DNA of 64,000 nt, taken from assembly GCF_003018115.1 (NCBI RefSeq), contig NZ_CP027457.1; one strand, 5' to 3'. Positions 30,085 through 30,915 of this stretch are shown here, in pieces; the stretch's first letter is position 1, and every line of letters begins with the position of its first letter. Under the pieces are notes generated by a model. It did no database searches. It was not told where the DNA came from and saw only the letters and a list, made by a program, of their open reading frames with translations. Made by a program: the position numbers and the translations under genes. Origin of the DNA: Escherichia coli (lineage in GTDB: Bacteria; Pseudomonadota; Gammaproteobacteria; Enterobacterales; Enterobacteriaceae).

Positions 30085-30915
30085 CTACGCAGAGCGAGAC
30101 GCTGTCGCCCCTGCACGTGGTGGCAGGGCAAATGCCACCAGCGCCGGGATGAGATAAATAAACCAGACGGCGACTTCGCTGACGCTCGGTGCTTCCTGAT
30201 AGCCAAAAATCCCTTCCATCAGCGTGCCAAACAGCGAGTGAGTTGAGAGGACCTCGCTCATATCGAAGGCGATTTCCTGAAAGTGGTTCCACAATCCGGC
30301 TTCATGAAATGCGCGAATGGCACCAGCTGCCAGCCCTGCGGCGACGAAGAGAATAAACAGGCTGGTCCATTTAAAAAATGCACCAAGATTGAGGCGAATA
30401 CCGCCCCAGTAGAGCAGGAAGCCGAGCACCACGGCAGTAGCAAGACCGAGCATTGCACCCAGCGGCGGCCAGATCCCGACATCTTGTTGAAATGCCGCCA
30501 GCAGGAAAAAGACCGACTCCAGGCCTTCCCTTGCAACGGCAAAAAAGACCATCATCACCAGCGCCCAGCCATGATGATTTCCACGCTGCAATGCGCTATC
30601 GACTGCCTGTTCCAGTTGCACTTTGACGTTGCGCGACACTTTGCGCATCCAGAAAACCATCCAGGTAAGGATCACCACGGCGATCACCGCCACGATACCT
30701 TCAAACAGTTCCTGCTCTTTTTGCGGAAATTCGCCGGTGGTTTCGTTAATGAAGATACCCAAGCCCAGGCACAACGCAGCGGCAAGCAACACGCCAATCC
30801 ACATCACACCAATCCATCGGCCTCGCTGGGTACGCTTAAGATAGCTGGCAATCAAACTGACAATCAGCGCGGCTTCAAGCCCTTCGCGCAACATAATGAG
30901 AAACGGAACAAACAT
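30085..30915 (-). CDS. efeU: EfeU ferrous-iron permease (FTR1 family), apparently intact
   Basis: 276 aa from MFVPFLIMLREGLEAALIV... with two REGLE motifs; uninterrupted. Confidence 0.85.
   Translation of the reverse strand: MFVPFLIMLREGLEAALIVSLIASYLKRTQRGRWIGVMWIGVLLAAALCLGLGIFINETTGEFPQKEQELFEGIVAVIAVVILTWMVFWMRKVSRNVKVQLEQAVDSALQRGNHHGWALVMMVFFAVAREGLESVFFLLAAFQQDVGIWPPLGAMLGLATAVVLGFLLYWGGIRLNLGAFFKWTSLFILFVAAGLAAGAIRAFHEAGLWNHFQEIAFDMSEVLSTHSLFGTLMEGIFGYQEAPSVSEVAVWFIYLIPALVAFALPPRAGATASRSA

Follow-up and report, generated by a model that had tools for sequence, protein, structure and literature searches.

Ftr1-type permeases and the EfeUOB system

The founding member of the OFeT permeases is yeast Ftr1p, which acts with the Fet3p ferroxidase and has in common with bacterial EfeU the Pfam FTR1 family, seven membrane segments and two REXXE motifs (PMC9174327). 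The similarity is distant, at about 25% (PMC3577903), and the partner in yeast is a multicopper oxidase, whereas the partners of bacterial EfeU are EfeO and EfeB. YwbLMN (EfeUOB) of Bacillus subtilis and FepABC of Staphylococcus aureus have the same three-protein architecture and, as in EfeUOB, are Fur-repressed operons with a Tat-exported DyP peroxidase; they belong to Gram-positive bacteria, and their partner proteins are lipoproteins or extracytoplasmic (PMC3577903). Placed in E. coli, the YwbLMN and FepABC proteins were functional only as homologous partner pairs (PMC3577903).

In E. coli, EfeUOB is described as an acid-stimulated route of Fe2+ uptake (PMC9174327, PMC3577903), and iron transport by EfeU is the subject of Grosse et al. 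2006, to judge from the title as cited. In O157:H7 the system is reported to be functional (Cao et al. 2007, Mol Microbiol 65:857, PubMed 17627767, as cited by others), and Fe2+ uptake in acid medium depends on it (PMC3577903); the title of Cao et al., as cited, also names control of efeUOB by CpxAR. The efeU gene is complete in O157:H7 and cryptic in K-12 owing to a one-base deletion in codon 36 (PMC3577903), and the MG1655 transporter is accordingly described as non-functional because of a frameshift (PMC2808357). Regulation by Fur has been described outside the strain studied here: efeU and efeO belong to the Fur-2 iModulon in one or more other strains (PMC10164565), and in ExPEC a predicted Fur box precedes efeU and the gene was induced in serum (PMC4145685).

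Here we describe the efeU locus in a window of 64,000 nucleotides, that is, the whole stretch of E. coli DNA that was analysed. A preliminary description, made from the sequence alone, had pointed to an intact efeU at this place, in contrast to the frameshifted K-12 allele. For the comparison, O157:H7, represented by the genome of strain Sakai, was taken as the functional reference.

An intact efeU reading frame

The efeU coding sequence lies on the minus strand at 30085-30915, running from an ATG at 30915 to a stop codon that ends at 30085, and its 831 nt encode 276 amino acids of an inner-membrane iron permease of the FTR1/OFeT type, as judged from the open reading frame and from Pfam and NCBIfam matches. 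The mechanically called reading frame is three codons longer, reaching a GTG at 30924, and the ATG is the RefSeq start in strain F9792, in which efeU has the same coordinates and the DNA is 100% identical over 29900-31300. Five complete genomes are 100% identical over this 1.4-kb efeU region, and there the gene is annotated as efeU and not as a pseudogene.

Full-length model matches above curated cut-offs place the protein among the EfeU/FTR1 (OFeT) permeases. It matches Pfam FTR1 (PF03239) over residues 1-275 and profile positions 1-283 of 284, with an E-value of 1.9e-89 and 300.2 bits (cut-off 25.3), and it scores 331.8 bits against the NCBIfam EfeU equivalog NF041756 (cut-off 255) and 351.8 bits against TIGR00145 (cut-off 303.8). 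A Kyte-Doolittle scan, a simple measure of hydropathy, gives seven separate hydrophobic stretches. Two REGLE (REXXE) motifs are read directly from the sequence: residues 10-14 (30874-30888, minus strand) in hydrophobic segment 1 (amino acids 1-24), and residues 129-133 (30517-30531, minus strand) in hydrophobic segment 4 (amino acids 118-141). The columns of the first motif are invariant and those of the second nearly so among 117 orthologues from enterobacteria that share at least 80% identity. A sequence search found no solved structure of an EfeU relative. The preliminary description of a full 276-residue FTR1-type permease with both REGLE motifs was exact in coordinates, length and motifs.

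Aligned with efeU of Sakai (ECs_1263), the gene shows no gaps and no frameshift, in keeping with the earlier reading of efeU as intact, and the two proteins are identical at 275 of 276 positions, the only difference being A221E. Codon 221 (30253-30255, minus strand) is GAG (Glu) here and GCG (Ala) in Sakai and K-12 in the alignments, and lies in a hydrophilic loop between segments 6 and 7. The exact 61-mer surrounding E221 occurs in 6 of 5344 genomes, mostly of the O169:H41 ETEC lineage. In the alignment of 117 orthologues the residues on either side are invariant or nearly so; column 221 itself is variable (N64, G16, A11, Q9, H5, E4). Because the column is variable and glutamate also occurs in other orthologues, we judge it unlikely that A221E affects EfeU.

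The comparison with K-12 turns on a single base. In MG1655, efeU is the pseudogene b4490 of 830 nt, with DNA about 98% identical to the efeU described here, and in pairwise and three-way alignments the sole indel of the coding region is one G missing from K-12 within ATT-GGT. Both G residues of codon 36 (GGT; coding nucleotides 106/107, window positions 30809-30810, minus strand) are present here and one of them is absent from K-12. Where the window reads ATT GGT GTG, K-12 reads ATT GTG TGA, and its frame ends as ...RWIV* with the stop at codon 37; the allele of the window is not of the cryptic K-12 type. The frameshift that the preliminary description ascribed to K-12 is a real one-base deletion in codon 36 of MG1655, and the window does not have it.

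How common the intact allele is was assessed across complete E. coli genomes, with the survey counting the K-12 deletion site only. The efeU region was found in 5417 of 5426 genomes. A 60-mer spanning the deletion was found unchanged in 368 of the 5379 genomes that matched; the carriers among the matches listed (40 of the 368) look like K-12 derivatives or laboratory strains. The corresponding intact 61-mer was exact in 3637 genomes, the others being SNP variants or of the K-12 type. These counts make intact efeU the norm of the species and K-12 the exception. An unbroken efeU is ordinary for E. coli and well documented; publications on the defect of K-12 date from 2006-2007 onwards.

Partner genes and operon structure

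Downstream of efeU and in the same orientation lie efeO (28900-30027, minus strand), encoding a periplasmic protein of 375 amino acids with cupredoxin and M75/imelysin domains (Pfam, NCBIfam and a match to PDB 7wgu), and efeB (27623-28894, minus strand), encoding a Tat-exported DyP-type haem peroxidase/deferrochelatase of 423 amino acids (Pfam and NCBIfam TIGR01412). The start of efeO lies 57 nt past the stop of efeU and that of efeB 5 nt past the stop of efeO; with these gaps and all three genes on the minus strand in the order efeU-efeO-efeB, the arrangement is consistent with a single operon. All three proteins score far above their equivalog cut-offs, and gene order, gaps, domains, equivalog matches and the Tat motif of EfeB together make up the tripartite EfeUOB architecture. 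EfeB carries the name 'deferrochelatase/peroxidase' in NCBIfam, matches PDB entries 2y4f and 3o72 in sequence, and keeps both the twin-arginine (Tat) motif SRRRLL and residues D235, H329 and R347. In terms of the solved structures of YcdB (2y4f, 3o72), we take D235 and R347 as the distal Asp and Arg and H329 as the proximal His.

The likeness to O157:H7 extends to the whole locus, which has the same operon, the same chromosomal place, the same Fur box and the same 2.5-kb accessory segment upstream. EfeO is identical to that of Sakai at 374 of 375 positions and EfeB at 417 of 423, the six EfeB differences (Sakai to window: E4K, K6E, E11G, V48D, P261L and G323V) falling mostly in the signal-peptide and N-terminal region. 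Besides these protein changes, efeUOB differs from that of Sakai by a few silent or promoter-region SNPs.

The promoter-proximal region

A Fur box at the promoter, the mark of the Fur regulon, is present as CGTAATGATAATCGCTATC at 30975-30993 (minus strand). Found by a consensus scan, this Fur-box-like sequence agrees with the consensus GATAATGATAATCATTATC at 15 of 19 positions, lies 60-78 nt 5' of the ATG, and is the single best match to the Fur consensus in the 64-kb window (about 128,000 positions on both strands). The preliminary description had placed such a sequence some 60 bp upstream, and the 3' end of the box is indeed 60 nt from the ATG. Eighteen of its bases, GTAATGATAATCGCTATC, recur unchanged in K-12 and Sakai, and the first base is C here and G in Sakai. 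MG1655 has the same Fur box, and the 129 bp nearest to efeU that include it are conserved with both K-12 and Sakai, differing from MG1655 by three single bases.

A possible -10 hexamer, GATAAT (30982-30987, minus strand), lies inside the Fur box, with a -35 candidate, TTGTAT, that matches at 3 of 6 positions 16 nt further 5'. A sigma-70 and terminator scan covering 27400-31400 gave no promoter 5' of efeU on its own strand, the GATAAT/TTGTAT pair falling below its threshold; as the efeU promoter this pair is plausible but weak. Between the Fur box and the ATG, on the plus strand, is the CpxR-box-like sequence GCAAAGAAAAGTAAA (30953-30967), with one mismatch to GTAAA-N5-GTAAA. It is one of three near-matches that overlap within 30943-30977, to be set beside a background in the window of 1.2 sites per kb at two mismatches or fewer. 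As a candidate site, GCAAAGAAAAGTAAA is in keeping with CpxAR control of the operon as published.

Two other features of this region were considered and set aside. A terminator-like hairpin at 30966-30984 (minus strand) falls inside the Fur box and is read as dyad symmetry of the operator region, not as a terminator. An open reading frame of 88 amino acids at 30927-31193 (minus strand), with two hydrophobic stretches, might be taken for an upstream small membrane protein. It stops 12 nt short of the efeU ATG and runs across the Fur box and promoter. It has neither an annotation nor a Pfam match, the K-12 break point at 31043/31044 interrupts it, and in Sakai it has an indel of one base near 31162; it is probably no gene.

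Function of the operon

The preferred reading is that this is an ordinary wild-type E. coli efeUOB operon, and it is very probably an intact, Fur- and CpxR-controlled system for ferrous iron uptake at low pH. The locus holds an unbroken frame of the right family together with its motifs, its partner genes and its promoter-proximal region, and it is free of the K-12 lesion. From this we infer production of the Efe proteins, iron transport by them, and occupation of the two regulatory sites by Fur and CpxR. EfeU would be the seven-segment inner-membrane Ftr1/OFeT permease, with its two REXXE motifs as the proposed sites of iron binding and translocation, and the Sec-exported EfeO (cupredoxin and M75) and the Tat-exported EfeB (DyP haem peroxidase) would be its periplasmic partners. 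Together the three proteins would take up ferrous iron at low pH. Fe2+-Fur most likely represses transcription of efeU through the box that lies 60-78 nt 5' of the ATG and probably overlaps the -10 element, with CpxR as a likely modulator. The earlier suggestion of a probably working, Fur-regulated uptake system is in this way supported by the sequence together with the literature on other strains.

One may argue that the intact frame is itself an error of sequencing or assembly and that the strain truly has a K-12-like frameshift. Nothing was found in favour of this reading, and it is effectively refuted: the five complete genomes that are identical over the 1.4-kb region were assembled independently, the 61-mer with the intact GG recurs exactly in the 3637 genomes noted above, and the site is a GG dinucleotide and no long homopolymer. 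A system that is inactive or silent in spite of its intact frame, through A221E, through a substitution in EfeB or through altered upstream regulatory DNA, is also improbable, if less remote. The rarity of the E221 61-mer, the six differences of EfeB from Sakai and the failure of the scan to call a canonical promoter would all speak for it; set against them are the variability of residue 221 with glutamate in other orthologues, the intact catalytic residues and Tat motif of EfeB, a promoter-proximal stretch of 129 bp nearly identical to those of K-12 and Sakai, and the scores of all three proteins far above their equivalog cut-offs.

A further reading accepts that the operon works and places its main role in the extraction of iron from periplasmic haem, with deferrochelation by EfeB feeding import by EfeU, instead of in the uptake of free Fe2+. 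EfeB has been reported to free haem iron while leaving the tetrapyrrole intact, and EfeUOB of O157:H7, with its complete efeU, to let the cell draw on haem iron independently of the Dpp haem permease (PMC3577903; PMC9174327); the 'deferrochelatase/peroxidase' name given to EfeB by NCBIfam points the same way. Yet the same literature credits EfeUOB with Fe2+ uptake at low pH (PMC9174327; PMC3577903), the neighbourhood examined contains no gene for an outer-membrane haem receptor, and the sequence fits either role alike. We consider haem as the main source unlikely, albeit the least unlikely of these alternatives, and such a role would be compatible with low-pH uptake of ferrous iron by an ordinary efeUOB operon, the two not being exclusive.

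The accessory segment upstream of efeU

Homology to K-12 upstream of efeU ends at 31043/31044, 129 bp from the ATG, so that the DNA beyond -129 is unlike that of K-12, where regulation was studied, and is the same as in O157:H7. From the K-12 break points, an accessory segment of 2.5 kb can be placed at 31044-33588, between the efeU promoter and the stop codon of putP (33588); it is context, outside efeUOB. In K-12, which has no such segment between putP and efeU, 413 bp stand in its place; among complete E. coli genomes, 645 of 5426 (about 12%) carry it, O157:H7 included. About 900 bp of it, within 31000-32000, have a GC content of 31-37% and no annotated gene.

The segment contains an open reading frame for an orphan 'hypothetical protein' of 447 amino acids at 32097-33440 (plus strand), which is ECs_1262 in Sakai. 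No match to it was found in Pfam, NCBIfam or PDB, and a word-index search returned E. coli copies only. An exhaustive HMMER search gave 51 representatives, and iteration over these resolved a 62-aa repeat that occurs 213 times in 42 representative proteins. The C-terminal half of the ECs_1262-type protein consists of three such repeats, with the consensus W..M...ER...GG...A......GLT..G..L; AlphaFold models the three confidently, with a pLDDT of 88.8, and likewise one unit, with 92.3, and the repeat bears a weak resemblance to HTH/winged-helix domains. The nearest named relatives are annotated as 'SET domain-containing protein-lysine N-methyltransferase' in S. enterica subsp. indica and Salmonella bongori, where the repeat forms the body of the proteins, and a C-terminal SET domain was present in 4 of 9 relatives scanned. 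The S. bongori SET gene lies between an IpgD/SopB-type gene, with a type III chaperone, and an NleG gene.

The 62-aa repeat is undescribed, and it may be an unrecognised effector-type module. That the ECs_1262-type protein is an unrecognised secreted factor binding DNA or chromatin, and that the segment may add a regulatory input to efeUOB, is a doubtful proposition; an effector-like, DNA-binding role for the protein is put forward here as a hypothesis only.

The flanking island and other features of the window

The window matches F9792 only to the right of about 24,850 and departs from it to the left. A genomic island at the serX tRNA-Ser site occupies window positions 1-24860 and runs past the left end; only a 3'-terminal stub of serX is left at about 24840-24860, and ARAGORN detected no tRNA in the window. 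The island contains a P4-type integrase gene at 23463-24680 (minus strand) and, by the annotation of strain 2014C-4135, cdiB/cdiA (contact-dependent inhibition, tRNA-nuclease type), a gene for an L-lactate permease, and DUF3987 genes. It is matched over its length by one genome only, that of 2014C-4135, at 99.9%.

Between the island and efeB, the next gene after phoH (26214-27278, minus strand) is a DUF2726 gene (24946-25632, minus strand), and the tRNA stub comes after it. The genes pgaABCD-dgcT, which follow phoH in O157:H7 Sakai and in K-12, are absent from the phoH locus of the window. Four Rfam matches exceed the gathering score: Ysr251 at 26219-26412 (plus strand), antisense to the 3' end of phoH; ES036 at 45922-45964 (plus strand); naRNA4 at 51844-51922 (plus strand); and the cspA thermoregulator at 62604-63026 (minus strand), in the 5' UTR of a cold-shock gene near cspG/cspH.

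Significance

As an annotation point, the efeU result is routine: the gene itself offers nothing new, and the orphan repeat protein and the tRNA-Ser CDI island may be worth more. Its main use is to remind the reader that it is K-12 that departs from the rule. Here, as in most E. coli that do not belong to the laboratory lineage of K-12, the genetic capacity for iron uptake at low pH by EfeUOB is present.
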